Origin: an uncultured Clostridia bacterium
GTDB taxonomy: Bacteria > Bacillota > Clostridia > Christensenellales > UBA1242
Assembly (NCBI GenBank): GCA_944372505.1
Contig: CALVZK010000002.1
Location: 44,692-108,691 of the forward strand
DNA length: 64,000 nt
Direction of reading: 5' to 3'
The position numbers and the translations under genes are program-made. Positions within the stretch are counted from its first letter, which is position 1. Every line of letters begins with the position of its first letter. A model generated the notes under the pieces. The model was not told the DNA's origin. It saw only the letters and a program-made list of their open reading frames with translations, and made no database searches. Shown here in pieces: positions 6,451 to 61,181 of the stretch.

Positions 6451-6531
6451 ATATTCAAAATTGTGGCAGTATCATTTGACTGCATGCTTTTTATAATTTT
6501 ATAATTCGTGTATGTACAAAGGAGAAATTAT

Positions 6532-40977: not shown

Positions 40978-41068
40978 TTGTATGACCTCTACAATATCAG
41001 TTTAGCAAGTTAAAAGCGAATTGTTACATTTTTTATTTTTTTGGCAGTAATTATTGTTTTAATAAATT

Positions 41069-41401
41069 ATGAAAAGTAAAATTTACTCGAGGCTAAAAGG
41101 AGCAAGTCGAGTGAATGAAGAAGATAAGATTAAGAAAGCATTAATGAAAAAAGCACTTGGATATAATGCTGATGAATCAGTAGAAGAATATACTTTTGAT
41201 GAACATGGGCAGAAGATATTATCAAAGCAAAAAGTCACAAAAAAACATTATAGTCCCGATATTAGTGCTGTTAAAGTCTTACTAGAGAGATATTTTAAGA
41301 CTTACGAAGAACAATTACTTGATTTTTCAGATGAAGAACTTGAAGAAGAAAAAAAGCGACTTTTGAGTCTTTTAAAGGAGGATAAGGGTGGAAATTTTTG
41401 A
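41069..41401 (+). CDS. Terminase small subunit-like protein
   Basis: KKALGYNADESVEEYTFDE.G....KQKVTKKHYSPDISAVKVLLERY resembles small-terminase sequences of Firmicute phages. Position is before the portal. An alternative GTG start at 41111 has an AAGGAG RBS. Confidence 0.45.
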   Translation: MKSKIYSRLKGASRVNEEDKIKKALMKKALGYNADESVEEYTFDEHGQKILSKQKVTKKHYSPDISAVKVLLERYFKTYEEQLLDFSDEELEEEKKRLLSLLKEDKGGNF

Positions 41402-41612
41402 AGTAAAGCATTTAGTCAAATGCGATTTCAACGGCTGTAACAATTTAGCAAAATATAGTTTTTCTACAAAGGGTTTATTGAAAAAAGATCTTTGCTTTTG
41501 TGAAGATTGTTTAAGACAAATGTATGAAATTATTGCTAAAATGCAGAAGCCAAGATCTGTTTCTAGTCCATTCAGATTAAATAAAAGGATGAAAAAATAT
41601 GAAGAAAGATAA
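41388..41612 (+). CDS. Small Cys-containing (zinc-ribbon-like) protein in the slot where terL normally sits
   Basis: 74 aa with CDFNGC ... CFCEDC. Overlaps both neighbours by 14 nt. Confidence 0.5.
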   Translation: MEIFEVKHLVKCDFNGCNNLAKYSFSTKGLLKKDLCFCEDCLRQMYEIIAKMQKPRSVSSPFRLNKRMKKYEER

Positions 41613-43449
41613 TAACAAAATTGTTGAAGAAGTTTTAAAAGATTTTAAAGATAGAGCAGAAAAAAGAAAGAGTTTTGATCTTATCTGGCAAATTAACATG
41701 AATTTTTTGATGGGTAATCAATATTGCAATGTTGGATATGGTGGTCACCTCGAAGAAGCGGATCGTCAGTTTTTTTGGCAGGAACGCGAAGTTTATAATC
41801 ATATAGCGCCTACTTTTGATATTCGATATGCAAAATTATCAAAAATAAAGCCAGATATTAATGTTTTGCCTTCTACTAGTGATGAAAGGGATAAGCAATC
41901 TGCCAAGGTTTCAAAAAAAATTTATAAATACATTAAAAATAAATTAAAAATTGATAGTTTGGTAAATCAAGCAATCAAGTGGTCAGAAGTTTGCGGAACT
42001 GTGTTTTATAAAATCAGTTGGAATAGTGATATTGGACAAATTATAGGGATTGATGAAAGTGGTTCGAAAATAAAAAGTGGCGATGTTGAAATTAGCGTTG
42101 TCAGCCCATTTGAAATTTATCCTGATAGTAGTGTATGTGATAGTTTAAAAGCTTGTCAAAGCCTAATTCATGCAAAAGCATATACAACGGCTCAAGTTAA
42201 GCAAATGTATGGTGTTGAAGTAGAAGGGAAAAAAGTTAATACATATGCTTTAGACAGTGTAGCTGAGGGTGTTGGAGGACTCGGACTTACTGGTACTATG
42301 CCGAAAATAATTGAGAGCGTAAAAGATGACAGTGTTATTGTTGTGGAAAGATATATTCGACCTAATGCAGACTATTTAAATGGTAGATTAACAATTGTAG
42401 CTGGAGATAAATTGGTATTTGATGGAGATTTACCTTATCAATGCGGTGAAGATGGAGATAGAGATTTTCCTTTTATTAGACAAACTAGTATTGAAGAACC
42501 GGGGAGTTTTTGGGGAAGTAGTGTAGTTGAAAGACTAATACCAGTTCAAAGAGCATATAACGCTGTAAAAAACAGAAAACATGAATTTTTGAATAGACTT
42601 TCTTTGGGAGTGTTAAGTGTAGAAGATGGCTCTGTTGATTTAGATAATCTTGAAGAAGAAGGATTATGCCCTGGGAAAGTTTTAGTTTATAGACAAGGGG
42701 CAAATGAACCTAAATATTTAGAAGGAGAAAATATCCCGTCGGGATTAAATGAAGAAGAACAATTCTTGCTTGATGAATTCAATAAAATTAGTGGAGTAAA
42801 TGATTTATTAAGTTTTAGTTCTCTATCGTCAAATTTAAGTGGAACTGCTCTTGAACTAATGATATCTCAAGATGAAGCAAGATTAAATGCTCCTATTGAA
42901 AGTATTAAATGTGCAGTTAAAGATATTGCAAGTATGATTTTAAGATTATATAAACAATACGCATCGTTTCCTAGAATTGCTAAAATTGTGGGAGAAAATG
43001 GGGAAGTTGAAATGTTCTATTTCTCTTCAAATGATATTTCTAGCGAAGATATTGAACTTGAAAATATTACTGATGGGATGCAAAGTCTTTCTCAACGTAG
43101 AGATTTAATTTTTTCTTTATTAGAAAACGGAATACTTCAAAATGAAGACGGTAATTTATCTAATAGAATGAAAAGCAAAATATTAGAAATGCTTGGTATG
43201 GGGATTTGGGAGAATGCTCAAGATATTACAGATCTTCATATAAAGAAAGCAGATAAAGAAAATTTAAAATTGTTAAAAAATGAAAATGTTTCAGTTAGCG
43301 AAATTGATGAACATAAATTACACTTAAATGAACATATTGCTTTTATGCTTGGTCAAGATTATGAAAAAGCATGCAAAGATAATAAATCTTTAGAAGAAAA
43401 GTTTTTAGCACATATTCGTGAGCACAAATCAAAATTGGAGGATAAATAA
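41599..43449 (+). CDS. Putative portal protein
   Basis: 616 aa with no P-loop. Lies between the small-terminase-like and scaffold/capsid genes. Assignment rests on size and position. Confidence 0.6.
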   Translation: MKKDNNKIVEEVLKDFKDRAEKRKSFDLIWQINMNFLMGNQYCNVGYGGHLEEADRQFFWQEREVYNHIAPTFDIRYAKLSKIKPDINVLPSTSDERDKQSAKVSKKIYKYIKNKLKIDSLVNQAIKWSEVCGTVFYKISWNSDIGQIIGIDESGSKIKSGDVEISVVSPFEIYPDSSVCDSLKACQSLIHAKAYTTAQVKQMYGVEVEGKKVNTYALDSVAEGVGGLGLTGTMPKIIESVKDDSVIVVERYIRPNADYLNGRLTIVAGDKLVFDGDLPYQCGEDGDRDFPFIRQTSIEEPGSFWGSSVVERLIPVQRAYNAVKNRKHEFLNRLSLGVLSVEDGSVDLDNLEEEGLCPGKVLVYRQGANEPKYLEGENIPSGLNEEEQFLLDEFNKISGVNDLLSFSSLSSNLSGTALELMISQDEARLNAPIESIKCAVKDIASMILRLYKQYASFPRIAKIVGENGEVEMFYFSSNDISSEDIELENITDGMQSLSQRRDLIFSLLENGILQNEDGNLSNRMKSKILEMLGMGIWENAQDITDLHIKKADKENLKLLKNENVSVSEIDEHKLHLNEHIAFMLGQDYEKACKDNKSLEEKFLAHIREHKSKLEDK

Positions 43450-43451
43450 AT

Positions 43452-44138
43452 ATGGAAGAAATAAGAGAACAACCGACCATGGAACCGGCAAATGCTTTAA
43501 ACCTAGCAGAAATAGACAGTGTCGAGAGTGAGGTCGGCTCTCAAGGCGAATTTGGCAAATTCAAAAATGCAGATGCATTGTTAGAGGCCTATAACAATTT
43601 GCAGGCTGAATTTACCAGAAAGTGCCAACTGCTAAGTAATTTGCAAAAAGATAAGATGCAAGAGGAAAAATTTAGCGAAAGAGAAAATGACACATCAAAT
43701 TTCAATAATATTAATGAATTGGAAGGTGTTAATAAAAATGAAGTTTTAGATGAATCTAATAATAGTGAAATTAGCGAGAAAAATTTTGAAGAAAGCCTAC
43801 AAGCATTCCTTGATGCAAATGCCGATGCAAAAGAATTTGCAAATGAAATTAAAAATGAGTTTTCTAATGCAAAAACAAGCCCATTTGAAGATGCTTGGGC
43901 TAAGGTTGTTTTTTCTCAATTAAAGGAAGGCAAACTTAGTGACAATATGATTAATCAATATTTAATTAGTGATGAAAATATTAAAAATAAAGTTATAGAA
44001 TCATATTTAAAGAATCTTCAAAACAATAAACCACCTTTGATAATATCTTCCAGCGGGGAAAGGCTGTCACAAGTAAAACCAGACAGTCCTAAAACCCTTG
44101 CTGAAGCAAAACAAATAGTGGATAAAATGTTTAGTTAA
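43452..44138 (+). CDS. Putative scaffolding protein
   Basis: 228 aa, acidic, predicted helical. The GKFKNADALLEAYNNLQAEFTRK segment is common in phage scaffold proteins. Directly upstream of the capsid gene. Confidence 0.55.
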   Translation: MEEIREQPTMEPANALNLAEIDSVESEVGSQGEFGKFKNADALLEAYNNLQAEFTRKCQLLSNLQKDKMQEEKFSERENDTSNFNNINELEGVNKNEVLDESNNSEISEKNFEESLQAFLDANADAKEFANEIKNEFSNAKTSPFEDAWAKVVFSQLKEGKLSDNMINQYLISDENIKNKVIESYLKNLQNNKPPLIISSSGERLSQVKPDSPKTLAEAKQIVDKMFS

Positions 44139-44487
44139 AAATAATGACATAAAATTATTTTAAAATATTGTTAAAAATATTATAAAGTTTAGAAATTTTA
44201 TTAAAAAATAAAATATTAAAGAAATTAAAATAAAAAATGTAAAAATTAAAAAAATATTTTAATTAATTAATAAAAAATAATTTTAATATTTTTTATGTTA
44301 TTTTTTAAATAAAAAAAATAATAAATTATTAATTTTGCATTATTTTTTAATTATTATAATTTTAAATATTATTTTATTTACATTTTTTGTTGAAAAATAG
44401 GTCGAATTTAATTAATTATTATTTAAATTAAAATAATTATTTAAATAAAATAAATTTTAATTTTAATGTAATTTAAAAGGAGAAAAT
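44139..44487. other. Extreme A+T spacer inside the head operon
   Basis: 349 nt with only 21 G/C by hand count (about 6% G+C). Ends with an AAAAGGAG RBS for the capsid gene. Confidence 0.9.
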
Positions 44488-45702
44488 ATGGTTACATTAC
44501 AAACAGCTGAAAATGCTTTAAAAACAGTTTATTTAGGCGTAGTTGCTAATCAACTTAATGATAATGCAAATCCTCTTCTTGCTAGAATTAAAAAAACTAG
44601 TAAAGATGTTTGGGGAAAAGAAATTAGAAAACTTGCTCCATTTGGCATAAACGGTGGAATAGGAGCAGGAAGCGAAACTGCAGCTTTGCCTATTGCTTCT
44701 GAAAATAGTTATGTACAATTCGTTGCAGATCTTAAAAACCTTTATGGTAAAATTGAAATTTCTGACAAAGCTATTAGAGCTTCTGCAAATAATATCGGGG
44801 CTTTTGTTAATCTTCTTTCTGATGAAATGGAAGGTCTTGTTAAAGCAAGTTCATTTAATCTTGGAAGAATGCTATATGGAGATGGTAGTGGTGTTTTAGC
44901 CACTGTTAATGCGCATCAAAACAAAACTATTACTTGTGATAAAGTAAATAATCTTATCGAAGGTATGCTTGTAGATATTTATAATGGTGCTACAAAAGCA
45001 AATAACTATCCAGTTAAAATAGTTTATGTTGATAGAGTAAACAAAAAATTCACTTATTCATCTTCAGAGACATTAGTTTTAAATAGTGGATTTAAAGTTT
45101 ATCTTCAAGGATCAAAAGGAAGTGAAATTTCTGGATTAGGGAAAATTTTTGATTCTTCTGCTACCAGTATTTATGGAGTTAGCAAAAGTGATTATCCTTG
45201 GTTAAATCCATATGTTAATAGTACTCAAAAAGAAATTAGTGATATTGTTATTCAAGAAGCCATTGATTTTCTTGATATGAATGTTGATTCGAAAATTAAC
45301 TTTATTACTTGTTCAAGCCAAGTAAGGAGAGTTTATCAAGAATATTTAGGAGCTTATAGAAGAAATATAGAAATTGCTTCTTTAGAGGGTGGATATAAAA
45401 CTATAACTCACAATGGAATACCTGTTGTTGCAGATAGATTTGTAGATGATGATACAATGTATTTGCTTAATACAGATGACTTTGTTTTACATCAACTTTG
45501 CGATTGGAAATGGTTAGAGGGAGAAAATGGTCAAATTTTAAGACAAAATCCAGGCTATCCAACTTATAGTGCAACACTAGTTAAATACGCAGAATTGATT
45601 TGTGATAAACCATGTGGACAAGCAAAGATTAGTGGTATCAAAGCAACAGTAACGAATCCATTTACAACAGTTGTTGAGACTACCGTAGAGGAAACAGCGT
45701 AA
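44488..45702 (+). CDS. Putative major capsid protein
   Basis: 404 aa, follows the scaffold gene, strong RBS, dedicated terminator downstream. No motif-level proof. Confidence 0.6.
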   Translation: MVTLQTAENALKTVYLGVVANQLNDNANPLLARIKKTSKDVWGKEIRKLAPFGINGGIGAGSETAALPIASENSYVQFVADLKNLYGKIEISDKAIRASANNIGAFVNLLSDEMEGLVKASSFNLGRMLYGDGSGVLATVNAHQNKTITCDKVNNLIEGMLVDIYNGATKANNYPVKIVYVDRVNKKFTYSSSETLVLNSGFKVYLQGSKGSEISGLGKIFDSSATSIYGVSKSDYPWLNPYVNSTQKEISDIVIQEAIDFLDMNVDSKINFITCSSQVRRVYQEYLGAYRRNIEIASLEGGYKTITHNGIPVVADRFVDDDTMYLLNTDDFVLHQLCDWKWLEGENGQILRQNPGYPTYSATLVKYAELICDKPCGQAKISGIKATVTNPFTTVVETTVEETA

Positions 45703-45715
45703 TAAAAAGGGAGAC

Positions 45716-45756
45716 AGGCAAAAAGCAGAGATAGTTTTTTGCCTTTTCTTCTGTTT
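45716..45756 (+). terminator. Rho-independent terminator/attenuator after the capsid gene
   Basis: AGGCAAAAA ... TTTTTGCCT 9-bp stem followed by a T-rich tract. Confidence 0.65.
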
Positions 45757-45767
45757 TTGGAGGTTAA

Positions 45768-46079
45768 ATGAGATATTTAGAGATAACTGAAGATGTATAT
45801 TTGATAGGAAAAAGATTAAAAGAAATTGATAGAAGTTACATCATTTTATACAATCTTGATAAAAAGTCTTACGAAGTACATTCTCAAGGAAGAGGTAAAG
45901 GAAGTTATTGTTTTACAGTGCCATATGATATATTAGATGCTCGAACAATAACATATGCACGAAAAACAAGTGTAGAGAGAAGGGATAAAATAATAGAGGA
46001 GATTGAAATTAACAACCAAAAACTTTACGAAAGATCAATTAAAGAGCAAGTAAATAAGATAAAGGAGGCACTATGCTAG
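45768..46079 (+). CDS. Hypothetical phage-module protein
   Basis: 103-aa ORF with a GGAGG RBS. Confidence 0.6.
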   Translation: MRYLEITEDVYLIGKRLKEIDRSYIILYNLDKKSYEVHSQGRGKGSYCFTVPYDILDARTITYARKTSVERRDKIIEEIEINNQKLYERSIKEQVNKIKEALC

Positions 46080-46621
46080 TAAAAGACATAATAAAGTTAG
46101 CATGTGAATTCATAGGGTTAGAAACGGTTAAAGCGGGGATCGAGAGTAATAACTTAACCGAAGAGGATGAATTAGTTTGTGATAGTCTAGTTAACTTATT
46201 TAATCTTATCAACGACGAGATAACTAGCGAGTATATACCAATTTATCGTAAAGAGAGAGTAAAGTGCAACGATTTTAAAGTAAATTACTCATCATTAAAA
46301 GAGGAGCCATTACAAATCATATCAGTAAAAGATATATGTGGACGGAAGATAAGATTCAAAGCGTTTGAGGATCACATTGTAGCGATAGCAAGCATGGTAG
46401 AGATAATTTATACAGTTAAATCAGAAAGATTAGAAATAGACGACGAAATTAGTTCCAGTTTACCAGAGAGGGTATATGCATATGGAATAGTAAGGGAATA
46501 TTATTTTTTACAAACAATGTTTGATGATGCAGATGTGTGGGAGGAGCGCTTTAAGAATAGTTTGCAAGTATTACAGAGGAGGAAAAGCGAGACGACAATG
46601 GCTCGAAGGAGGTGGCTTTAA
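46073..46621 (+). CDS. Hypothetical protein, possibly head-tail connector/adaptor
   Basis: 182 aa. Position after the capsid gene. GGAGG RBS. Overlaps its neighbours. Confidence 0.35.
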   Translation: MLVKDIIKLACEFIGLETVKAGIESNNLTEEDELVCDSLVNLFNLINDEITSEYIPIYRKERVKCNDFKVNYSSLKEEPLQIISVKDICGRKIRFKAFEDHIVAIASMVEIIYTVKSERLEIDDEISSSLPERVYAYGIVREYYFLQTMFDDADVWEERFKNSLQVLQRRKSETTMARRRWL

Positions 46622-48102
46622 TGTTTTATAGAAACACCTTAAAAACGAAAAAGACGAAAGAGAAAGAGATAAAGATAAACATATTCGAGAAAGGCTTAAC
46701 AGACAAAGATGGGTTTATAAGTGAAAATGGAGAAGGGCAAGAGAGTTACAACTTTGATATGAACAGCGGGGCATTAAAATCGGGATATGGATTTAGCAAA
46801 TTAATGTTGCCTTCAACAACAGAGGACCTCGAGAGTGAAAGCGAGTTAAGTATAAGAGGGAACGAGATAAAATCATTATGGAAATTAAAATGGTATAATT
46901 TCAATACAGACGAGAACAATTATTATTTATTTTACTATAATGATGAAGGAAATGTATGTTATGACAATTTATTTGGGCAAAGGCTTGCGACATTTATAGT
47001 ACCAAATGATTTCAGTGAAGTACCATATGCAACGTATTATAGAACGGGGCAGCAAGATACATTGTTATTATCTGGCGAGGGAGATGATTTAGTAATTATT
47101 ACAGGTAACGGAGTGCAAAGAAATGCAAGTGCGCCGAAAATTGTTTCATGTTGTAATCATTATGGAAGATTATTTGCCATAACCTCATCAGAGCGAGGGA
47201 CACTAGTTTATAGTGAAGATACGGACATATTAAATTTTACCGATGAATTATGTAAAGATTTAGATTTCAGTGACGAACGCGGAGATTTAAACAAAATTTT
47301 ATCTTTTAACGATTATTTATATTTATTTAGAGACTTTGGAATTACAGAAGTTTCGCAATATGGAACCGATGACAATTTTGCTATAAGTCATTTATATATG
47401 TCTAATAGTTATATATATCCAAATACAATAGCCCAATGTGGAGACGACATAATATTTTTAGATAGCAGTGGATTAAAAGTATTTAATGGTTCATCAGTAA
47501 AAGAAATAGAAAGTGTTTACAATGCAAAGATAAGCAAAAAAAATCAAAAATATGCTTGGGGAGAATACTATAACGGAAAATATTTTTTATCATGTAAAAT
47601 AGATTTTGCAGATAATAGACAAATCGGGTGTGAAAAGAACTCTACAGGTTATATAAATAATGTTCTGTTAGTATATGATATATCAAAGAAAAGTTTCGAG
47701 ATAGTAAGAGGTATAGATATAAATAGATTACTGACTTTAAACAATCCTCACAAGAGTAAACTTGTGGCTTGCTTTAACAACGAGCATAAAGATAAAATTG
47801 GACAACTTAACGAAGACGGAAAAATATTTGGAGAGCAACTTGAAAAATATTGGCGAAGCACAAATAGCGATTTTGGTTATAGTGGAAAAGTTAAAAGGAT
47901 ACGATCGTTTACCATAAAGACAAGCGGTGCATGCAAAGTAACTTTTGAGAGCGAGAATATGATAAAAGAGATATCTGTCAAAGGCAAGGAAGGAGTACAA
48001 AGAATAAACACAAATATCATAGGGAAAGAGTTTATTGTAACGATAGAAAGTTTAGGAGATGCTTTTATAAGTAACTTTGTTTTAAATGTAGGAGTTTGCT
48101 AA
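46621..48102 (+). CDS. Large structural protein of unknown role (beta-rich)
   Basis: 493 aa from the ATG at 46621 (AAGGAGG RBS 8 nt upstream, TAATG overlap with the previous stop). Repetitive beta-strand-like segments. Confidence 0.55.
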   Translation: MFYRNTLKTKKTKEKEIKINIFEKGLTDKDGFISENGEGQESYNFDMNSGALKSGYGFSKLMLPSTTEDLESESELSIRGNEIKSLWKLKWYNFNTDENNYYLFYYNDEGNVCYDNLFGQRLATFIVPNDFSEVPYATYYRTGQQDTLLLSGEGDDLVIITGNGVQRNASAPKIVSCCNHYGRLFAITSSERGTLVYSEDTDILNFTDELCKDLDFSDERGDLNKILSFNDYLYLFRDFGITEVSQYGTDDNFAISHLYMSNSYIYPNTIAQCGDDIIFLDSSGLKVFNGSSVKEIESVYNAKISKKNQKYAWGEYYNGKYFLSCKIDFADNRQIGCEKNSTGYINNVLLVYDISKKSFEIVRGIDINRLLTLNNPHKSKLVACFNNEHKDKIGQLNEDGKIFGEQLEKYWRSTNSDFGYSGKVKRIRSFTIKTSGACKVTFESENMIKEISVKGKEGVQRINTNIIGKEFIVTIESLGDAFISNFVLNVGVC

Positions 48103-48210
48103 TTGAGACTAAAATATAAAAATCATATTGCACTGATAAATAAAGCCCGCCAAAAAGAAGAGGAGAAAATCATCCTTGACTTATTAACAATAAAAGGAAA
48201 GGGGATTTAA
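48103..48210 (+). CDS. Possible 35-aa ORF (TTG start)
   Basis: TTG directly after the preceding stop, AGGAG about 8 nt upstream. Ends 1 nt before the next ATG and fills the gap exactly. Confidence 0.3.
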   Translation: MRLKYKNHIALINKARQKEEEKIILDLLTIKGKGI

Positions 48211-48211
48211 A

Positions 48212-48442
48212 ATGGATTTTTGGAACGAACTGATTAAAATAATAGTTTCTTATGGAATATTTGCAATGTTGTTTGTATTTCTGTTTTTTTATCAACTAAA
48301 GGATAGTTCAAAAAGAGAAGAAGCGTATAGACAAACAATAGAAGAATTAACTTCACATTTAGAAACTTTAAACGAAGTAAGAGATGAAGTTAGCGAATTA
48401 AAAGAAATTGTGTCTAGGAGGGATAATGAAAAATCGAATTAA
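48212..48442 (+). CDS. BhlA/UviB-family holin-like protein
   Basis: 76 aa. One N-terminal TM (YGIFAMLFVFLFFYQL) followed by K.SSKREE and a coiled-coil tail, as in BhlA/UviB. Confidence 0.6.
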   Translation: MDFWNELIKIIVSYGIFAMLFVFLFFYQLKDSSKREEAYRQTIEELTSHLETLNEVRDEVSELKEIVSRRDNEKSN

Positions 48443-48722
48443 GTCTTATAGTTTTTGGACAGCCTTATCTGGGGCAGTAGTAATTTTCTTGAACGCACTA
48501 GGTGAATTGTTTGGTTTTTCCGTGCAAGATGAACTTGTATCAGGGATAATTATGGCAGTTGCAGGAATTTTGGTGGTATTCGGAATTGTAACAATGCCAA
48601 ATGACAATCAAAATAGCGAAGAAGAAATTGAAGAAGACACGGAAGAAAATGTTACTCAAGTTACAAAAGAAGAAGATTCACGACAAGAGGAAAGCAAAGA
48701 GGAAGATAGCGATAAAAATTAG
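48426..48722 (+). CDS. Holin (phi LC3-like, two TM) with acidic tail
   Basis: MKNRIKSYSFWTALSGAVVIFLNALGELFG ... IIMAVAGILVVFGIV, then an E/D-rich C-terminus. Confidence 0.6.
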   Translation: MKNRIKSYSFWTALSGAVVIFLNALGELFGFSVQDELVSGIIMAVAGILVVFGIVTMPNDNQNSEEEIEEDTEENVTQVTKEEDSRQEESKEEDSDKN

Positions 48723-49003: not shown

Positions 49004-49040
49004 CAAAAGAAGCGGTCACATTTTGTGACCGCTTTTTATT
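49004..49040. terminator. Bidirectional terminator
   Basis: AGCGGTCAC-ATTTT-GTGACCGCT hairpin with a flanking A-run and T-run. Confidence 0.75.
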
Positions 49041-49135: not shown

Positions 49136-51259
49136 TTATGGAACCGGAGAGTCTTCATTATCTAAATATTTAAGCCCTGTATAGAATTTATAGTTTGTAG
49201 TCATATCACCTGCTTTTTTAATAACCTTGTATGTGATTTCAAGATAATCACAACCATCACTTCCACTGAACATTGCAGGATTTAATCTTCCTGATGTGTA
49301 TGTGTAACCATCTTGCAATGCTTCTTGATCAAGTGATGTTGAACCCGGTTCTACTATCTCATAATATTTTCTTATGTTGTTTGTACCAACAAGAATTAAT
49401 GGCTCTTTTGATACAAGCGGATTGCCTTTGTAATCATTGCGTCCTACATCGGTTTTAAGTATGCCATTACCAATGTTCGTGTTGAAAACTCCAACATGCA
49501 AATAGCCTATGTCATCAAACACAACCCCGCTACAATGGTCTCTTGGAGCATTGACTCCATCACCGCCACCAATTGTATCGCCTTTATATCCATAAATATA
49601 ATCTATTTCGAAAGGTCCGTCATATACTCGCACTTTTTTAGATTGAATTATTCGTCTTGTGTTTGTTGCGTGATTGTAATAATTTAAGTCAACTATTATA
49701 TCGATATATCTATTCCAGTCGTATACAGCGTCTTCTGTTTCAAGATCTGCATTTCCGTCAAGATCTGCATCGTATTTAAGTGCTATCCATAATCCGTCAA
49801 CATATGTCTCTTGCTTAAACATAAGCACAACACTTTGATATTCAAGTGGTCTTATTGCATATTGATGCTCTTCTTTGTTAGGATCATAAACTGGGAAGTT
49901 TTTGTCATCTTCAATTTTAAATGTAGAACCAGCATATTCCATTATATTAGATGCGAGGAATCTGTCATCAATCGTTACATCACTTCCTTCATCTTTACCA
50001 ATTGAAACATCATTACATACAGCATTGATTACATTTCTTACTGTTGTTTCATAATTTCTTCCTAAGTCGTCTGTTGAGGCAGTACATCCTGGCGCCAACT
50101 GATAGGTGATTGACCCGTCTGGGTGAGTAACCTGTAAATAAGCTTGTCCGTATGTGTTTGTTTGATAAGTCATAAATGAGTCATCTCTTAAGGCATCTTC
50201 ACCAATTACGTTTTCTAATACCCAATTTTGAATTTTGGTAATTTGTCTTGAAACAAGTCCAACATAAGTGCCCAGTGTTTTAAATCTTGCCTTTGCTGTC
50301 TCAAGTGCACTGTCTACTGATTCATAAGTGCCTATTGTGATTCTATAATATGGATATTCATTTGTCTGTGTCACATAAACTTGACTTGGCTCTAAATCGA
50401 CAGCATAGGTATAAATCACATACTCAAGTGTCTTGACAAAATCAGAATAATTGTCATATATATATTGATCACTTGTCCCTAAATAAATTGAACTGTAATT
50501 ATTGGTGTAATCAGGAGTTAAATAAGTATTATTTATAATTGTGTTTAAATCTCCATACTCATCTTCTAAACTTAAATAAGTATTAAAAATGTAATTTTGA
50601 TTTTCATAACTTGTCACATATGAATAGTTATAATACAAAAGTGCAGGTATATTATCAATATTTGGGGAGAAAGACCAATTCCATTTTGTGTTTAAATCTG
50701 CGCCAATTATATAATATTTTTCAAAGTCTTCGTTGTCTTCATCAATAGTTAAATTTCCATCTGCGTCTATTGTGGCAGAGTGCGTTACCATGCCGACAGA
50801 GTCCACTTGATATCGAATACTGTCATATAAATAAGGTAGGTTTTCTAAATCAAATCCAGGATTATTAGAAGAAATAAAAGTATTATTACCTATTGCATAA
50901 TTGTTGTATAAGTACATTAAAATACCCCAAGCATATTGTCCATAATAATCGTTTACCCCTTCGCCGGAGCCATCAGCACCGCCAGAGCCATAGTCATAGT
51001 CATAGTTGTCAGGCCTGTAAAGCACTTTAGAGCCGTATAGATCAGGTGGCAAAGCCTCTTCAATGCCGGGGTCGTTTCCGCTTGATGGGGCATCTTCTTT
51101 ATTGTCTCCGCTTGATGAGTCATCTTCGTCCCAGCCGACAAGGTCTTTTCCTATTTCAATAAGTTCATCTAAAGAAAAACCACAACTAATACTCATAAGA
51201 CCAAAGCAGGATATGAGCAAACAACAAAATATTCTTATAAAAATATTCTTTTTCTTCAT
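49136..51259 (-). CDS. 707-aa lipoprotein, unknown function
   Basis: Signal peptide ending LMSISCG (lipobox-like), acidic/Ser linker, then a Y/N/D-rich globular region. Confidence 0.7.
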   Translation of the reverse strand: MKKKNIFIRIFCCLLISCFGLMSISCGFSLDELIEIGKDLVGWDEDDSSSGDNKEDAPSSGNDPGIEEALPPDLYGSKVLYRPDNYDYDYGSGGADGSGEGVNDYYGQYAWGILMYLYNNYAIGNNTFISSNNPGFDLENLPYLYDSIRYQVDSVGMVTHSATIDADGNLTIDEDNEDFEKYYIIGADLNTKWNWSFSPNIDNIPALLYYNYSYVTSYENQNYIFNTYLSLEDEYGDLNTIINNTYLTPDYTNNYSSIYLGTSDQYIYDNYSDFVKTLEYVIYTYAVDLEPSQVYVTQTNEYPYYRITIGTYESVDSALETAKARFKTLGTYVGLVSRQITKIQNWVLENVIGEDALRDDSFMTYQTNTYGQAYLQVTHPDGSITYQLAPGCTASTDDLGRNYETTVRNVINAVCNDVSIGKDEGSDVTIDDRFLASNIMEYAGSTFKIEDDKNFPVYDPNKEEHQYAIRPLEYQSVVLMFKQETYVDGLWIALKYDADLDGNADLETEDAVYDWNRYIDIIVDLNYYNHATNTRRIIQSKKVRVYDGPFEIDYIYGYKGDTIGGGDGVNAPRDHCSGVVFDDIGYLHVGVFNTNIGNGILKTDVGRNDYKGNPLVSKEPLILVGTNNIRKYYEIVEPGSTSLDQEALQDGYTYTSGRLNPAMFSGSDGCDYLEITYKVIKKAGDMTTNYKFYTGLKYLDNEDSPVP

Positions 51260-51515
51260 ATATATATGATAACCTTTTTTCTTCTAAAAATCAACATTTT
51301 GTTGTGATTTTCTTTATAGTTGATATTTTTTATATATAAAAAATCAAAAAATGACGAAAAAATGTTAAAATTTATTATGGTTATTAGGGTTTATATGTTA
51401 TCATACTTAAGTAAATTGCCTCTTTTTTTGATAATTTTGATAAAAATTGAAAAATGCTATTGAAATTTTTGTTTATATGGTATATAATATAACAAACGAT
51501 AAGGAGGAAATTTTA

Positions 51516-52679
51516 ATGGGGGGAATAGTGAAAGAACCTAAGAAAAAATATAAAATGGGATTAGGAAAGAAAATTGTTGCAGCCCTTTGTGCTGTTTTAA
51601 TCGTCGTAGGCGTTGGACTTGGTGTTTATTTTGGGCTTGCAAATAAAGATAGCAACAATATTATTCCAGATCAACCGGGGATTGAACAACCTGAAAATCC
51701 AGAAAATCCAGGTGGTGACATTGAACAACCTGAAGATCCAGAGAATCCAGGTGGCGACATTGAACAACCTGAAGATCCAGAAAACCCAGGTGGGGACATT
51801 GAAGAACCTGAAGATCCAGAAAACCCAGGTGGAGATATTGAAGAACCTGAAGATCCAGAAAATCCTGGTGGCGATATAGAAGATCCTAAAGATCCATTTG
51901 TGCTTGACACTTTAGATGAACTTATGGCTTATCGTCAAGGCACACTTTACAATACTTTAAATGAAAAGTTTATGGACGGAATTCTTTATAGATGCACATT
52001 ATCTCATGATTACACATATCAAGATGCAACAAATATAGAATGGACAATTTTAGAGTCATCACAAACCGATATTAGTAAAGTTCAAGTGAGATTTAATATA
52101 ACAACAGGTAATACCTATCGTTATTATGTAGGGGAAGCAACTTTTAAAGAACCAATATCAGTTCAAGACTTTGCAAATGCTAATATTACTCAAAGCATGG
52201 TTGATCAAGCAACATACAAATATACTTATACTGGTAGTGCTTTGGCTGATCAGTTAGAAAACTATAAACCACTTGCAGAAGCAATTGTGACTAAACTTGG
52301 TGGCACTGTTGGAGCTAATGACCAGTTGTTACCCACTATGGATACTGCTTCTACTGATCCACAATATTCTTGGGTGAGAAATTGTTATGTAAAACAAATT
52401 ACGGATAGTGGTGTAAACGAGTATACAATAACAATTAATGCAAAAAATGCTTCAGGGAATAATTTAATCAATCAATTAATTTTAAATTTACAAGCAGGTG
52501 AATACAAAAATCAAAAAGTTGAGAAAAATGTTATTGAATTAGCACCTGCATTTGATGAAAACAGTGTTGACAAGCAAACACCTGAATATGAAAATACTGC
52601 AAAAACTGCATCACGAGTTTCAATTGGAAAAATATCAAACGAAAATGGAGATGTTTACGACTTATATCTTGATTTATAA
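51516..52679 (+). CDS. Membrane-anchored surface protein with PE[DN]PENPGGDIE tandem repeats
   Basis: Start at the ATG after an AAGGAGG RBS. N-terminal TM IVAALCAVLIVVGVGLGVYFGL, repeat linker, about 260-aa C-terminal domain. Confidence 0.75.
   Translation: MGGIVKEPKKKYKMGLGKKIVAALCAVLIVVGVGLGVYFGLANKDSNNIIPDQPGIEQPENPENPGGDIEQPEDPENPGGDIEQPEDPENPGGDIEEPEDPENPGGDIEEPEDPENPGGDIEDPKDPFVLDTLDELMAYRQGTLYNTLNEKFMDGILYRCTLSHDYTYQDATNIEWTILESSQTDISKVQVRFNITTGNTYRYYVGEATFKEPISVQDFANANITQSMVDQATYKYTYTGSALADQLENYKPLAEAIVTKLGGTVGANDQLLPTMDTASTDPQYSWVRNCYVKQITDSGVNEYTITINAKNASGNNLINQLILNLQAGEYKNQKVEKNVIELAPAFDENSVDKQTPEYENTAKTASRVSIGKISNENGDVYDLYLDL
51681..51896 (+). repeat. In-frame 39-nt tandem repeat, 5.5 copies
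   Basis: ATTGAA[CG]AACCTGAA[AG]ATCCAGA[AG]AA[TC]CC[AT]GGTGG[TCGA]GA[CT] repeated head to tail. Encodes IE[QE]PE[ND]PENPGGD. Confidence 0.95.
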
Positions 52680-56691: not shown

Positions 56692-57861
56692 TTAAAACAT
56701 ATATAGATTATTTAGGTCAATCTCATCAAGAGAATTTTTATTGTCAAACTCACTATGTATTTTGTTCGATGCTTGAGATGAACTTTTTCTGTTTAAAGTT
56801 TTTCTACGACGAGGAAGTTTGTAAGATTTTCTTTCTGTGTTTACCGAAATTCCTTTCTCTTTCTTTATTGTTAGGGTGATATTGCCTTCTTCATAAGTAC
56901 AATATACAGGTCCATGTTTTTTTAACCTTTCAAGTGTTTTTTTGTCAGGGTGTCCATATATGTTTTCTTTTGCACAACTAATAATTGAATAAAAGTTGTC
57001 AGCAAATTCATTAAGAAAAGTTTCACTTGATGAATTTTTAGAACAATGATGAGCTACCTTAACGACGATTGTTTTTGATAAATCAATCTGATTATCCTCA
57101 CAAAAAAGTTGAATTTTATCTTCTATATTTGAACTTATATCACCTAAAAATATAAAATTTTTATTTTTATAATTTGCTAAAAGAACTAAAGAATTGTCGT
57201 TTTCATTTGTGTATAAATCGGTTGGACTTAAAAATCTAAAATGTATATTTCCAATATTAAATGATAAACCATTTAAAATATCTTGAGTTGTAATAAAATT
57301 AATTTTATCACATCGTATTTCTTCATAATTTTGGTATTTAGATATTTCTTCAGGTTTTGGACGTGTTTTCTTTCTTGAGTTCAATAAGAATATTTCATTA
57401 ATATGATTTTTTTTGACAATATTTGTAAAATCTTCCATATGATCTTTATGTAAATGTGTAAGGATGGCAAATTTGATAGTTTTTTTAACATAAGTATTGA
57501 GGTAATTTTCCACTTTCCCTTTGTCGCCTCCAAAATCTATTAAAGCAAATTCTCCCTTGTTTTCAATTAGAAAACTTTCTCCTTGTCCACAATCAATTGC
57601 GGTAATTTTACATCCAGTATCATTTATTTGTTTCTTTCTTTTTATTTTTTTATATGGAGTTATATTTCTAAAAGGAGATAAAATATTTTTAAAAAGGAAT
57701 GGATTTGTTTTATCTCTATTATAGTATTTTAACGACAAATAATCTGAAATTATTTCAGATTCTTTATCATAATCAAATCTTTTATTGTCAAATCCTCTAA
57801 TTTTTTTTACATTTAACAAATTTTTAATTTTAGGAATTTGCCATTCTTTCTTTAACTGCAT
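56692..57861 (-). CDS. Standalone ComEC-type MBL-fold protein, copy A
   Basis: ITAIDCGQGESFLIE, AILTHLHKDHMEDF, VKVAHHCSKNSSSETF, NIYGHPDKKTLERL. No TM or signal peptide. Start lies inside the upstream partner gene. Confidence 0.8.
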   Translation of the reverse strand: MQLKKEWQIPKIKNLLNVKKIRGFDNKRFDYDKESEIISDYLSLKYYNRDKTNPFLFKNILSPFRNITPYKKIKRKKQINDTGCKITAIDCGQGESFLIENKGEFALIDFGGDKGKVENYLNTYVKKTIKFAILTHLHKDHMEDFTNIVKKNHINEIFLLNSRKKTRPKPEEISKYQNYEEIRCDKINFITTQDILNGLSFNIGNIHFRFLSPTDLYTNENDNSLVLLANYKNKNFIFLGDISSNIEDKIQLFCEDNQIDLSKTIVVKVAHHCSKNSSSETFLNEFADNFYSIISCAKENIYGHPDKKTLERLKKHGPVYCTYEEGNITLTIKKEKGISVNTERKSYKLPRRRKTLNRKSSSQASNKIHSEFDNKNSLDEIDLNNLYMF

Positions 57862-58939
57862 CAAGTTTTTTCTCCAATAAATCTAATTCGTAGTTATATG
57901 AAATATCATATTCTACATGAGAAAAATAATATTTTTTTTGTTTAGTTTGTTTGTCGTATACTAATACTACAATATCCTCAGGTCTTGCATATTTAGGCAA
58001 ATCTTCTTCATCGACATAATTATTGAAATCGTTTTCAACATTACAATTTGATAATCTATACACATGATCGAATTCAAGTTCCATAATTTCATATTTGCCG
58101 ATTATATCTTCTTTGGAATACGGTAAAGGATGTTTAATATAATATTCTTCGGCTTTTTTACTAATTTTTTCTAATATTTTTCTTTTATTTTTTAAAGCAT
58201 TTATTTTTTCTGTATATTTATCATAATATTCTTGAAGAGTTTTGCACCCTTTTACATTTGATGCTTTCATTAAAACTTGATTGTAAGTAACATTTAACTC
58301 TTTTAAATCATCGTCAAAGATATATGCATAAGAAGGACCTAATTCAAATTTTAAATATATATCTCCAGTTGTGAGATTCCCATTAAGTTCATAATCGCAA
58401 ATAAATGTTAATTTATGGATATCATCAAGTTCACACATGGATACGCCATATTTGTAGATATCTTCAACAAGATATCTATGAATTTTAAAATGATTATTGT
58501 CAAATTTTACTTTATTATCAAATCTTGCTAAAAAATCCTTAAAGTATTTAGTAAAAATATGATCTTTTATTAATTTATCACCATTTATATATACAAGGTC
58601 AAGGGGAGAAAATTCTTGTTGTGGTTTGTTAAATTTGATTAGCTTTTTATCTCCATTCTTGATTAAATAAATGTATTTGTTATCAATTTTTTTAATAATA
58701 TGAAGATCTTCCAAAGTAGGAATAAATTTTTCTTCAGATTTTTGTATTTGTTTAAATATGTGGGGGTTAAAATATTCATTAAAACAATTTCCTACTTTAA
58801 CATCACCTTCAAATTCATTTCGAAAATATCCAAACTTTATACCGGAATGATTTTCGGTTAAAACTACATATTTATTACAATACAATACTCTATTAAAACG
58901 TAATTGATTTATTTTATCTATTCTTTTTTCTTTATCCAT
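57830..58939 (-). CDS. Uncharacterised partner protein, copy A
   Basis: 369-aa ORF with GGAG RBS. No motif I recognise. Its last ~11 codons overlap the MBL-A start. Confidence 0.7.
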   Translation of the reverse strand: MDKEKRIDKINQLRFNRVLYCNKYVVLTENHSGIKFGYFRNEFEGDVKVGNCFNEYFNPHIFKQIQKSEEKFIPTLEDLHIIKKIDNKYIYLIKNGDKKLIKFNKPQQEFSPLDLVYINGDKLIKDHIFTKYFKDFLARFDNKVKFDNNHFKIHRYLVEDIYKYGVSMCELDDIHKLTFICDYELNGNLTTGDIYLKFELGPSYAYIFDDDLKELNVTYNQVLMKASNVKGCKTLQEYYDKYTEKINALKNKRKILEKISKKAEEYYIKHPLPYSKEDIIGKYEIMELEFDHVYRLSNCNVENDFNNYVDEEDLPKYARPEDIVVLVYDKQTKQKKYYFSHVEYDISYNYELDLLEKKLDAVKERMANS

Positions 58940-58951
58940 AAATACTCCTTT

Positions 58952-60112
58952 TTAAATTGCAATAAAATTATCTAAATCAATTTCACCAATATTATTTGTT
59001 TCTCTATGTATTTTGTTCGATTCTTGAGATGAACTTTTTCTGTTTAAAGATTTTCTAATTCGAGGAAGATTGTAAGATTCTCTTTCTGTATTTACCGAAA
59101 TTCCTTTCTCTTTCTTTATTGTTAGGGTGATATTGCCTTCTTCATAAGTACAGTATACAGGTCCATGTTTTTTTAACCTTTCAAGTGTTTTTTTGTCAGG
59201 GTGTCCATATATGTTTTCTTTTGCACAACTAATAATTGAATAAAAGTTGTCAGCAAATTCATTAAGAAAAGTTTCGCTCGATGAATATTTAGAACAATGA
59301 TGAGCTACCTTAACAACTACTGTTTTTGATAAATCAATGTTGTTTTTTTCACAGAATTTTGAGATTTTTCTTTCAGTTGCAAATCCTACATCTCCTAAAA
59401 ATATAAAATTTTTGTTTTGGTAGGTTGCAAGAAGAACTAAAGAGTTGTCGTTTTCTTTATCAGAAATTTCAATAGGACTTAAAAATTTAAATTCTACATT
59501 ACCAACATTAAATGATAGACCATTTAAAATATCTTGAGTTGTAATAAAATTAATTTTATCACATCGTATTTCCTCATAATTTTGATATTTAATAAATTCT
59601 TTTTGTTTTGGTGGTTTCTCATTTCTTGAATTTAATAAAAAAATTTGATTTATATTAAAATTTTTAACAATATCGACAAAATCTCCCATATGATCATCAT
59701 GTAAATGAGTAAGAATAGCAAATTTAATGGGTTTTTTAACATATGTCTTTAAATATCTTGCAATATTTCCTTTATCCTTCCCAAAATCTATTAAAGCATA
59801 TTCTCCTTTGTTTTCAATTAAAAAACTTTCTCCTTGTCCACAATCAATTGCGGTAATTTTACATCCAGTATCATTTATTTTTCTTTTTCTATCAATTTTT
59901 TTGTATGAGGTTAAATTTCTAAAAGGAGATAAAATATTTTTAAAAAGGAATGGGTTTGCTTTATCTTTATTATAATATTTTAACGACAAATAATCTGAGA
60001 TTATTTCAGATTCTTCTTCTAAATCCTTTATTTTATTGTTTTGTCCTTTAATAAAATGTACATTAATGTAATTTTTTATTTTAGGAATTTGCCATTCTTT
60101 CTTTAACTGCAT
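58952..60112 (-). CDS. Standalone ComEC-type MBL-fold protein, copy B
   Basis: Same motifs as copy A (AILTHLHDDHMGDF, VKVAHHCSKYSSSETF). About four fifths identical to copy A by eye. Confidence 0.8.
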   Translation of the reverse strand: MQLKKEWQIPKIKNYINVHFIKGQNNKIKDLEEESEIISDYLSLKYYNKDKANPFLFKNILSPFRNLTSYKKIDRKRKINDTGCKITAIDCGQGESFLIENKGEYALIDFGKDKGNIARYLKTYVKKPIKFAILTHLHDDHMGDFVDIVKNFNINQIFLLNSRNEKPPKQKEFIKYQNYEEIRCDKINFITTQDILNGLSFNVGNVEFKFLSPIEISDKENDNSLVLLATYQNKNFIFLGDVGFATERKISKFCEKNNIDLSKTVVVKVAHHCSKYSSSETFLNEFADNFYSIISCAKENIYGHPDKKTLERLKKHGPVYCTYEEGNITLTIKKEKGISVNTERESYNLPRIRKSLNRKSSSQESNKIHRETNNIGEIDLDNFIAI

Positions 60113-61181
60113 CAAGTTTTTTCTCCAAATAATTTAAATAATAATTAAAAGAATTATCATAATCAGTACGAGTGAAATAATATTTTTCTTGTTTAGTATT
60201 TTTATCTTTTACAAGAATAACTATATCTTTTTCCCTTACATAATTAGGTAGATCTTTTATTTCAACATAGATACATTTTGTATCATCATCATAATCTACC
60301 AACCTATATACATTGTCAGTCTCTAGTTCAACTACTTCAAATTTTCCAATAATATCTTTTTCGGAAAATGGCAAAGGATGTTTAGCATAATATTCTTCGG
60401 CTTTCTTACTAATTTTTTCAAATATTTTTCTTTTATTTTTTAAAGCATTTATTTTTTTTGTATATTTATCATAATATTCTTGAAGAGTTTTGCACCCTTT
60501 TACATTTGATGTTTTCATTAAAACTTGGTTATAAGTAACTTTTAACTCTTTTAAATCATCGTCAAAGATATATGCATAAGAAGGACCTAATTCAATTTTT
60601 AAATATATATCTCCAGTTGTAAAATTCCCATTAAGTTCATAATCGCAAATATATGTTAATTGATTAATATCATCAAGTTCACATATGGAGACACCATGTT
60701 TATGAAAGTCTTCAACAAGATATCTATGAATTCTAAAATGGTTATTGTCAAATTTTACTTTATTATCAAATCTTGCTAAAAAATCCTTAAAGTATTTAGT
60801 AAAAACATTATCTTTTATTAGCTTGTCACCATTTATATATACAAGGTCAAGAGGAGAAAATTCTTCTTGTGGTTTGTTAAATTTAATTAGTTTTTTATCT
60901 CCATTCTTAATTAAGTAAATGTATTTGTTGTCAATTTTTTTAATAATATGAAGTTCTTCAAGTGTAGGAATAAATGTTTCTTCAGATTTTTCTACTAAAA
61001 CAAAGGTTTTACCATTTGAACCAAAATTAAGATCATAATAAGCCCCAATTTGCGGAGGATCAACAAAAATTTCTTTTGACCAGCCAAGTTTATATCCATC
61101 GCAATCTTCGGTTAATACAACATATTTATTAAAAAAGAGAACTTTATCTAAATTTAATTTTTTCATTTTTTCTTTATCCAT
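60081..61181 (-). CDS. Uncharacterised partner protein, copy B
   Basis: 366 aa. The central ~230 aa is nearly identical to copy A, the termini are diverged. Overlaps the MBL-B start. Confidence 0.7.
   Translation of the reverse strand: MDKEKMKKLNLDKVLFFNKYVVLTEDCDGYKLGWSKEIFVDPPQIGAYYDLNFGSNGKTFVLVEKSEETFIPTLEELHIIKKIDNKYIYLIKNGDKKLIKFNKPQEEFSPLDLVYINGDKLIKDNVFTKYFKDFLARFDNKVKFDNNHFRIHRYLVEDFHKHGVSICELDDINQLTYICDYELNGNFTTGDIYLKIELGPSYAYIFDDDLKELKVTYNQVLMKTSNVKGCKTLQEYYDKYTKKINALKNKRKIFEKISKKAEEYYAKHPLPFSEKDIIGKFEVVELETDNVYRLVDYDDDTKCIYVEIKDLPNYVREKDIVILVKDKNTKQEKYYFTRTDYDNSFNYYLNYLEKKLDAVKERMANS

Follow-up and report, generated by a model that had tools for sequence, protein, structure and literature searches.

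We analysed a window of 64,000 nt from an uncultured Clostridia bacterium (UBA1242; assembly GCA_944372505.1, contig CALVZK010000002.1, positions 44,692-108,691), in which a module of phage-type structural genes lies at 41069-48722. We read this module as the structural and lysis half of what is probably a host-maintained, podovirus-derived particle system of the gene transfer agent (GTA) type. It comprises eleven open reading frames (ORFs) on one strand, with overlapping or abutting starts, all of them present as described in a first-pass annotation made from the letters of the sequence. The flanks given there are likewise borne out: upstream lies an ABC transporter on the minus strand, and downstream a 707-amino-acid (aa) protein, whose signal sequence is of the lipoprotein type, a repeat protein of 410 aa, ComEC and HolA. 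The remainder of the window is housekeeping (lepA, ffh, rpsP, rimM, trmD, hrcA-grpE-dnaK-dnaJ, der, plsY, metG, lexA), the G+C content is ~28-30% throughout, and the module shows no compositional break. No integrase, replication, tail-tube, tape-measure or endolysin domains were found across the whole 64 kb, and the window holds no recombinase and no att-like repeats, as that annotation had also remarked. An Rfam scan of the window gave one tRNA and no other family.

For comparison, one genome per GTDB species was surveyed, which gave 96 species with a relative and 80 fetched loci; counts of intact ORFs take in only genes not cut by a contig end, and median identities refer to the window protein across the surveyed species. 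Searches of each ORF against Pfam, PHROG and NCBIfam, a check proposed at first pass, identified the portal, the capsid protein and the holins, with a sub-threshold match for the adaptor and a weak one for the terS-like protein (Table 1). The ORFs that had been called portal-sized and capsid-sized both have strong matches. The portal is of the P22/SU10 type found in podovirus head-tail modules, with 68.5 bits for PF16510 (cut-off 26.1) and 28.8 bits for PF23899, slightly below its cut-off of 30. For the capsid protein, the sole other NCBIfam match at E ≤ 0.01 is a weak one to HK97; it has more than 6,400 homologues, with no identity below 77% among the best 120, and the identical protein occurs on nine metagenome contigs with the same neighbours. 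The acidic 228-aa protein between them is intact in 65/66 loci (median identity 47%) and gave no family match in the Pfam, PHROG and NCBIfam searches; its slot and composition fit the scaffold role suggested earlier, and we call it scaffold-like by position and composition only.

The first ORF had been taken as small-terminase-like and as starting at ATG 41069. The assignment agrees with a weak match to phrog_309, which spans profile positions 196-247 of 319 only, and the gene directly follows terL in the unsplit relatives described below. The start did not stand, since ATG 41069 (110 aa) falls between the -35 and -10 boxes of a conserved promoter; most likely translation begins at GTG 41111 (96 aa), which is preceded by the ribosome-binding site AAAGGAG at 41096-41102 and fits the N-termini of orthologues and one public gene call. 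The terS-like protein (median identity 64%) has no Pfam, NCBIfam or PDB match, a Pfam scan of 17 orthologues was also empty, and no DNA-binding domain was found in it. PDB profile searches with this protein and with the adaptor gave nothing usable, and comparisons with gp21 and gp11 of Jasminevirus, a genus of Arthrobacter podoviruses, were negative. The cysteine pattern of the 74-aa protein is conserved, and some of the unsplit clusters (L100-L102, L108) have this protein too. For the 74-aa and 493-aa ORFs the PHROG matches are only faint and no family match is significant, and the 103-aa protein between capsid and adaptor has no family match.

The module had been described as head-only. This holds as far as integrase, replication and endolysin genes are concerned, none of which occur in the 64 kb, but not for the tail, of which an adaptor and a nozzle are present. 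An AlphaFold2 model of the 493-aa protein, built on an alignment of 57 sequences, reached a predicted local distance difference test score (pLDDT) of 88.4 and a predicted template-modelling score (pTM) of 0.89, and consists of a beta-propeller followed by a beta-sandwich. In a Foldseek search against the PDB the top match was the Pa223 tail (9nwi_Y, E 1.2e-20, TM-score 0.74); further matches were VP1, GP4, SU10, Pan3, the PhiM1 nozzle, the P22 tail complex and the T7 gp12 nozzle, and the best matches are all podovirus nozzle or tail-hub chains. The predicted fold identifies this protein as a podovirus tail nozzle. For the preceding 182-aa protein, a profile of 23 orthologues aligned over the full length with a metagenomic phage protein from the same slot (probability 93.7%, E 2e-7), which itself bears a precomputed weak Pfam SU10_adaptor match; these matches point to an SU10-type adaptor. 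A single-sequence AlphaFold model of the adaptor (pLDDT 42) was not used. Because the 493-aa protein is a predicted nozzle and the 182-aa protein a predicted adaptor, the module encodes a head together with a minimal podoviral tail, and the adaptor and beta-propeller nozzle follow right after the head genes, as in podovirus modules.

The slot behind the nozzle gene holds a gene of 163 aa, ~300 aa (DUF7934) or ~480 aa in other sub-lineages, and only a conserved ORF of ~35 aa in the window's lineage. This is the ORF that had been listed as possible, and its peptide is conserved in many species. The module closes with the two holin-like genes seen before; to the family of the first, PHROGs gives the label 'bacteriocin production or immunity'. 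The terminator that had been proposed for the capsid gene corresponds to a hairpin just behind it, and loci L010 and L012 have a similar G+C-rich hairpin with T-run in this position.

Table 1. Features of the structural module, of the terL locus and of their surroundings in the 64,000-nt window (values after family names are E-values)
Feature	Coordinates	Strand	Evidence or remarks
Stand-alone Spo0A C-terminal DNA-binding domain, no receiver domain	2315-2701	+	PF08769 2.7e-17
Second DUF1492-type regulator	2726-3097	-	paralogue of reg177
Promoter/operator of reg177	6422-6505	+	TGTCGTA, palindrome TTGTAAAATATTTTACAA at 6431-6448, TGGCAGT-N5-TTGACT-N18-TATAAT
reg177, DUF1492/phrog_36-type late-gene regulator, 177 aa	6508-7041	+	phrog_36 7e-09, phrog_248 1.2e-07
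Membrane-anchored extracytoplasmic protein, 271 aa	7038-7853	-	signal peptide and C-terminal transmembrane helix
TerL, large terminase	7939-9375	+	Terminase_6N 1.5e-16, Terminase_6C 5.8e-06, phrog_2 4.2e-37
Surface protein, 761 aa, membership uncertain	9476-11761	+	signal peptide, GLUG-like repeats, C-terminal transmembrane anchor
Module promoter	41021-41082	+	TTGTTACA; TGGCAGT 41042-41048, N5, -35 TTGTTT 41054-41059, 17 nt, -10 TAAAAT 41077-41082
TerS-like small protein, 96 aa	41111-41401	+	phrog_309 terminase small subunit 1.7e-05
Cys-rich, zinc-ribbon-like protein, 74 aa	41388-41612	+	intact in 61/61 loci, median identity 62%
Portal, P22/SU10 type, 616 aa	41599-43449	+	PF16510 P22_portal 5.8e-19, phrog_156 2.9e-37
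Acidic scaffold-like protein, 228 aa	43452-44138	+	portal-to-capsid slot, as in P22 and Jasminevirus
Spacer, 349 bp	44139-44487		almost wholly A+T
Major capsid protein, podovirus-type HK97-family, 404 aa	44488-45702	+	NCBIfam NF033394 capsid_maj_Podo 2.4e-77, phrog_14242 6.3e-49
Terminator-like hairpin after the capsid gene	45716-45744	+	G+C-rich hairpin and T-run
Conserved protein, 103 aa, capsid-adaptor slot	45768-46079	+	intact in 70/70 loci, median identity 52%
Head-to-tail adaptor, SU10 type (predicted), 182 aa	46073-46621	+	PF24175 SU10_adaptor 0.0013, under the Pfam cut-off
Tail nozzle / tail hub (predicted), 493 aa	46621-48102	+	AlphaFold2 fold and Foldseek
ORF of ~35 aa, nozzle-holin interval	48103-48210	+	conserved peptide ..YKNxIxLIN..EExI..D.L..
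BhlA-family holin-like protein	48212-48442	+	PF10960 1.6e-15; intact in 65/65 loci
Phage_holin_1-family holin	48408-48722	+	PF04531 1.3e-05, phrog_297 1.2e-11; gene callers' start 48426
Terminator-like hairpin closing the module	49007-49037	+	14-bp stem, T-run
707-aa protein	49136-51259	-	lipoprotein-type signal sequence
410-aa repeat protein	51447-52679	+	~five tandem 13-aa PEDPENPGGDIEQ-like units, 39-nt period, 51642-51935

The spacer between the scaffold-like and capsid genes may house an internal promoter that serves the highly expressed capsid gene. In other species the corresponding gap spans from ~15 to 358 nt.

The first-pass annotation had also considered a domesticated particle locus with dispersed parts, among them the orphan terL of the same window, and the relatives argue for exactly this. 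In the window the regulator and terL lie at 6.5-9.4 kb and the structural module at 41.1-48.7 kb. TerL has Walker A, Walker B and nuclease Asp motifs that are visible by eye in the sequence; it scores 35.6 bits on the PBSX-family terminase model, against a cut-off of 105, and its homologues are 74-85% identical among the matches listed (76-78% in L014 and L016). The locus of regulator, membrane protein and terL is syntenic in two further species (L014/L015, L016/L017). In deeper-branching species, whose capsid proteins are 55-65% identical to that of the window, we found the cluster unsplit: a DUF1492/phrog_36-type regulator, a 230-270-aa membrane protein on the opposite strand, terL, the terS-like gene and sometimes the Cys protein are followed by portal, scaffold-like protein, capsid, 103-aa protein, adaptor, nozzle, the variable gene and holin. 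TerL adjoins the rest in eight genome loci (L079, L082, L085, L090, L092, L094, L095, L097) and also in the IMG/VR fragments L100-L102 and L104-L108. Because these deeper relatives have terL contiguous with the terS-like gene, the portal and the rest, we take the terL at 7939-9375 to be the module's own terminase, parted from it by an old rearrangement whose break point in the window's lineage, judged from gene order, lies between terL and the terS-like gene.

The unsplit clusters are flanked by housekeeping genes that are common to several species (SSB, RNase J, O-methyltransferase, Peptidase U32, PolA, SpoVAC). A Peptidase U32 gene is also present in the window, at 39-1223, which suggests that it was the block from the terS-like gene to the holins that moved and that terL remained close to the ancestral site. 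On a 248,656-bp contig of the SIG418 metagenome-assembled genome (MAG), terL and the module lie ~54 kb apart on opposite strands. Orthologues of the 271-aa membrane-anchored protein occupy the same position and strand in the interval between reg177 and terL in all lineages, including those of high G+C. The 761-aa surface protein downstream of terL evolves fast, its synteny with terL is restricted to the split lineage (30-34% identity), and in L076 its link to the module is weak (21% identity, E 6.5e-4). A role of this protein as tail fibre is ruled out by its Sec signal and C-terminal membrane anchor.

The comparison of relatives that had been proposed at first pass (is the module syntenic, intact and under purifying selection?) gave a positive answer on each point. 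In 57 of the 80 fetched loci, representing 57 GTDB species, the module lies downstream of the same ABC transporter and, where contigs reach, is followed by comEC-holA, either directly or behind a variable surface-protein gene. The ORFs of portal (69/69), capsid (77/77), adaptor (75/75) and nozzle (72/72) are all intact. Median identities are 80% for the ABC ATPase, 76% for the capsid protein, 75% for DnaJ, 70% for the portal, 59% for HolA, 55% for RsmE, 48% for the nozzle, 45% for the adaptor and 41% for ComEC, which puts the capsid protein on a level with DnaJ in conservation. Across 48 taxa, the capsid, portal, nozzle and adaptor diverge in step with the neighbouring ABC proteins, as judged from pairwise distances (Spearman 0.79-0.92, Mantel p ≤ 0.001). 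In comparisons within the window's own species, the portal gene carries 8-9 synonymous and no non-synonymous changes, and the ratio of non-synonymous to synonymous polymorphism (pN/pS) of the nozzle is ~0.03-0.08. The element is old, because the fetched host loci span 26% to 58% G+C. These patterns indicate that both halves have remained intact and under purifying selection since the split, and that a broad clade of gut Clostridia carries the cluster as a fixed part of its chromosome. The host labels in the MAG titles are Clostridia and Eubacteriales, with Christensenella or Christensenellaceae for some high-G+C unsplit loci.

Within the window's species the nozzle gene shows 3-5% nucleotide divergence (synonymous polymorphism, pS, 0.12-0.20), mostly synonymous and spread over the whole gene. 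In the neighbouring genes for capsid, adaptor and holins, identity is mostly 99.6-100%, with one contig's BhlA gene at 97%, and rsmE has a high diversity similar to that of the nozzle gene. This pattern may be a recombination mosaic.

The two loci also share a promoter architecture. Across species, the module promoter has the layout TGT(G/T)AC, 14-17 nt, T(G/T)GCA(G/C)T, N5, TTGnnn, 17-18 nt, TATAAT, and it was found in 48/58 orthologous intergenic regions between the ABC transporter and the terS-like gene, against 0.15 expected from shuffles. In the window, the only intergenic matches to the full pattern are the module promoter itself and a site at 6464, in front of reg177, whose promoter has the matching architecture. 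The shared TGGCAGT-N5-(-35) element suggests that the two promoters fire together, on some signal. A sigma-54 promoter was considered and rejected: TGGCA..TTG has one extra base between GG and G(C/A), and a normal -35/-10 follows. Because the sigma-54 spacing is off and the -35/-10 pair normal, the module promoter is read as a sigma-A promoter with an upstream element.

The gene for reg177, whose true start is probably ATG 6532, lies upstream of terL in every lineage, split and unsplit. In phages that infect Gram-positive bacteria, regulators of the RinA, ArpU and DUF1492 types activate late genes. The -35 box of reg177 is preceded, at a distance of about 28 bp, by TTGTAAAATATTTTACAA, a perfect 18-bp palindrome and probably the operator of a further regulator; the right half of this palindrome, together with the downstream ATATTCAAAA, is conserved in unsplit species with capsid proteins ~60% identical. 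The regulators at 2.7-4 kb, which had been brought into connection with the module, have less to offer. LexA and the Spo0A_C-only gene, which adjoins the paralogue of reg177, neighbour terL only in the split lineage. Control by LexA was rejected, as the classical GAAC-N4-GTTC box occurs at chance level and none is located close to any of the system's components. A GAAC..GTTC palindrome with a 5-nt spacer, compared with 4 nt in the classical box, has a single good copy in the window, AGAACACTGTGTTCT at 4002-4016 upstream of lexA, and this is probably the SOS box of this organism. The 0A-box-like TGTCGWA is enriched in the window (14 copies vs 6.35 expected) and occurs in front of both reg177 and terL; control of the system through Spo0A boxes remains a lead, the Spo0A_C-like gene being linked only in the split lineage.

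No complete phage is closely related to the system, the best isolated phages being 24-29% identical. In INPHARED the best matches of capsid (27%) and portal (24%) are the same Arthrobacter podoviruses of the genus Jasminevirus; TerL matches Jasminevirus at 27.5%, and a few other podoviruses slightly higher, at ~29%. All 11 matches in IMG/VR are fragments of the same cluster. Across 1.84 billion cluster representatives, relatives of the capsid protein grade continuously from 59% to ~31% identity: one at 43% still has the same cluster order, and those at 37% and 32% stand in ordinary phage contexts, one with a 1,000-aa protein bearing a carbohydrate-binding module after the nozzle and the other with an Acb2/Tad1 anti-defence gene. 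From these comparisons, the domesticated clade stems from a podovirus lineage, and the window's lineage has lost the fibres, any needle or plug-like gene, the ejection proteins and the lysins. In the literature searched, we found no published description of this family.

The locus presents several of the features expected of a GTA: resident phage structural and packaging genes without replication or integration functions, vertical inheritance with purifying selection across the host clade, and genes dispersed over several loci. In the mechanism that we propose, a signal would make the module promoter and the regulator promoter fire jointly through the TGGCAGT-N5-(-35) element. Scaffold and capsid protein would then build procapsids on the portal, and TerL, acting in trans with the terS-like protein, would pump DNA into the heads, most likely host DNA and by a headful mechanism. 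Sealing of the portal vertex by adaptor and nozzle would complete a short-tailed particle, and the two holins, with a wall hydrolase encoded elsewhere, would lyse a subpopulation and free the particles. By analogy, mainly with the FpGTA element described below, random host DNA would be packaged and transferred to recipients. Because the two sites of the system are ~32 kb apart, one small head would be unable to carry the whole of it.

Several observations weigh against this reading. Particles, packaged DNA and transfer are predictions made here from gene content. In the window no tail fibre, receptor-binding protein, needle, ejection protein or endolysin was recognised, so that the needle or fibre and the ejection protein of a P22/SU10 module are missing, and delivery of DNA by such a particle is in doubt; every one of these components is present in the nearest true phages. 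The terS assignment hangs on a single weak PHROG match, and in the split lineage terL and the module were found on the same contig in two species only (the window and SIG418). The head may or may not have room for the system's own ~11 kb of genes. As for the promoter element common to both loci, it is a pattern match and a putative binding site only, and the lexA promoter of L014 (6938-6978) has a similar TGGCAC-N6-TTGCAT element, so that the TGGCAGT-type element may not be confined to the particle system.

The missing fibre and ejection genes bear most directly on the main rival, a use like that of PBSX or a bacteriocin, in which particles, perhaps DNA-filled, are released by lysis and the selected role is killing, release of DNA or nutrients, or altruistic lysis rather than DNA delivery. 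Injection is doubtful when fibre, needle and ejection proteins are not found in this lineage, and the BhlA-family protein at the end of the module, with its PHROGs label, points the same way. There is also a precedent, as PBSX packages DNA and is described as tailocin-like (PMC12946183). Capsid, portal and terminase are, however, conserved like core housekeeping proteins, which is hard to square with a dispensable DNA-filled head. No sheath, tube, tape-measure or baseplate domains, as in the PBSX-type block with its contractile tail, were found in the window, and the killing particles known to us use contractile or long tails, not a podoviral nozzle. We regard such a use as unlikely on balance, though the missing genes make it a real possibility. 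The same lack of receptor-binding proteins beside a complete head set would suit a satellite-like cluster that makes nozzle-bearing DNA heads and borrows fibres or tail parts from resident or infecting phages, as capsid-forming phage-inducible chromosomal islands (cf-PICIs) do, and the variation of the post-nozzle slot (163, ~300, ~480 or 35 aa) is as expected for an exchangeable host-range module. Against this stand the absence of integrase, replication module, att site or excision signature, a position fixed in 57 species with co-divergence with host genes, and the module's own adaptor and nozzle, which leave no interface for a foreign long tail; we judge it improbable.

The two other explanations raised at first pass fare worse. 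A decaying or recently grounded prophage remnant without function would account for the missing replication, integration, fibre and endolysin genes and for the absence of terL from its slot. It is contradicted by the occupation of the same site in 57 species, by intact ORFs in all species examined, including every scored portal, capsid, adaptor and nozzle gene, by strong purifying selection and co-divergence with host genes, by synteny across hosts of 26-58% G+C and by the retention of the relocated terL, and we consider it very improbable. Equally hard to credit is a capsid-derived, encapsulin-like compartment or another DNA-free use: elsewhere, as is generally known, shell proteins of the HK97 family have taken on the role of compartments, but here portal, TerL with ATPase and nuclease motifs, adaptor, nozzle and holins are conserved with the capsid, and encapsulin systems lack these. 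Conserved terminase and portal favour DNA packaging.

Few GTAs are known to us, nearly all of them in Alphaproteobacteria. The closest known analogue of the window system is FpGTA, a podovirus-like, two-operon GTA-like element of Faecalibacterium prausnitzii that packages about 8.5-9 kb of host DNA in ~40-nm particles (PMC12946183, Nat Commun 2026); the capsid family differs. Both are GTA-like elements of gut Clostridia made from podovirus-type parts, both occupy more than one chromosomal locus, and both have the core order portal, one further gene, capsid, then adaptor and nozzle, with no replication or integration genes; FpGTA is near-ubiquitous in its host genus. In contrast, NCBI calls the FpGTA capsid (RCH50849.1) 'N4-gp56 family', a name that is not among the NCBIfam matches of the window capsid at E ≤ 0.01, whereas the window capsid belongs to capsid_maj_Podo (NF033394). 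In FpGTA terS and terL lie in operon I beside the portal and a Prp-like protease takes the slot of the acidic scaffold-like protein, whereas the window terL is separate from the portal. Operon II of FpGTA holds fibre, receptor-binding protein, holin and endolysin; the second locus of the window has regulator and terL, and its holins sit with the head genes, after the nozzle. Particles and the packaging of 8.4-8.9 kb have been shown for FpGTA, whereas for the window system both are predicted. Because capsid NCBIfam family and operon layout differ, we treat the window system as an independent member of the same kind; it is apparently independent of FpGTA, set apart by capsid family name and operon layout and not by sequence alignment.

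As a concept, the locus fits best the RcGTA type of Alphaproteobacteria, a vertically inherited, phage-derived head-tail cluster with dispersed parts, host control and lysis genes, of which established descriptions are cited in PMC12946183. The differences, which are general knowledge, are that RcGTA is siphovirus-like, with tail tube and tape measure, unrelated in sequence, and regulated by CtrA and quorum sensing, with no counterpart in the window system. PBSX of Bacillus subtilis, which packages host DNA, is released by lysis and is described as tailocin-like (PMC12946183), resembles it as a chromosomally fixed phage-derived set in a Firmicute. PBSX differs in being myovirus-like, with a contractile tail, in forming a single block of ~28 kb and in its restriction to close relatives of B. 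subtilis (partly general knowledge). Among phages, the P22/SU10/T7-like podoviruses share the P22/SU10-type portal and the nozzle fold. In Jasminevirus (Arthrobacter phages Brad, Adat and Jasmine), terL and two small genes precede portal, scaffold and capsid, and adaptor and nozzle come next, which matches the order of the cluster; its 45-kb genomes, however, carry tail-fibre-type proteins, two lysins, DNA metabolism genes and, downstream of the nozzle, in the slot of internal or ejection proteins in T7-like phages, a 1,803-aa protein, all of which are absent from the window system. cf-PICIs share with the window a tail-poor set of head and packaging genes in a bacterial chromosome. By their published description they are mobile and variably present, with their own integrase, att sites and replication module, respond to induction by a helper phage and steal only phage tails. 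Unlike cf-PICIs and prophages, the window shows no integrase, att repeats or replication module, and the position is fixed across species.

Beyond the reading as a GTA-type system, we put forward a more specific proposal, which is possible but rather doubtful as a whole: an undescribed GTA family, independent of FpGTA and from another podovirus lineage, would have been fixed deep in a gut Clostridia clade (at least 96 GTDB species, fetched loci of 26-58% G+C) and would have survived an operon split through terL acting in trans. In the split lineage, with the fibre, needle and ejection genes lost and the module directly upstream of comEC, the particle might pass DNA to the recipient's competence machinery instead of injecting it. 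If so, production of protected-DNA packets and competence uptake would be two halves of one exchange system.

FpGTA (2026) was the first GTA from a gut commensal, and the same study observed GTA-like packaging in several gut Clostridia in which the encoding genes were not found (PMC12946183). The locus described here would define a second, apparently independent podovirus-derived family, with a clear gene signature, a conserved promoter and a wide range of hosts among MAGs from human and animal guts. The signature lends itself directly to screening genomes and to interpreting virome reads with even coverage of bacterial chromosomes. The separation of the operon serves as a natural experiment, in which function and not linkage keeps terL and the structural genes together. 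Given the labels of some unsplit MAGs, cultured Christensenellaceae may offer an experimental entry point.

The genes of the 707-aa and 410-aa proteins, which separate the module from comEC, are hypervariable within the window's species, with indels and 80-94% nucleotide identity, and this insert is present, inverted or absent depending on the species. A further large surface-protein locus amid the housekeeping genes is formed by a 1,168-aa protein with Listeria-Bacteroides repeats (27289-30795, plus strand) and the adjoining subtilase (26038-27177, plus strand). At 56692-61181, on the minus strand, a gene pair is present in two tandem copies (ORFs of 390, 369, 387 and 366 aa), each pair consisting of a ~390-aa metallo-beta-lactamase-fold protein that overlaps a ~367-aa protein without Pfam match.

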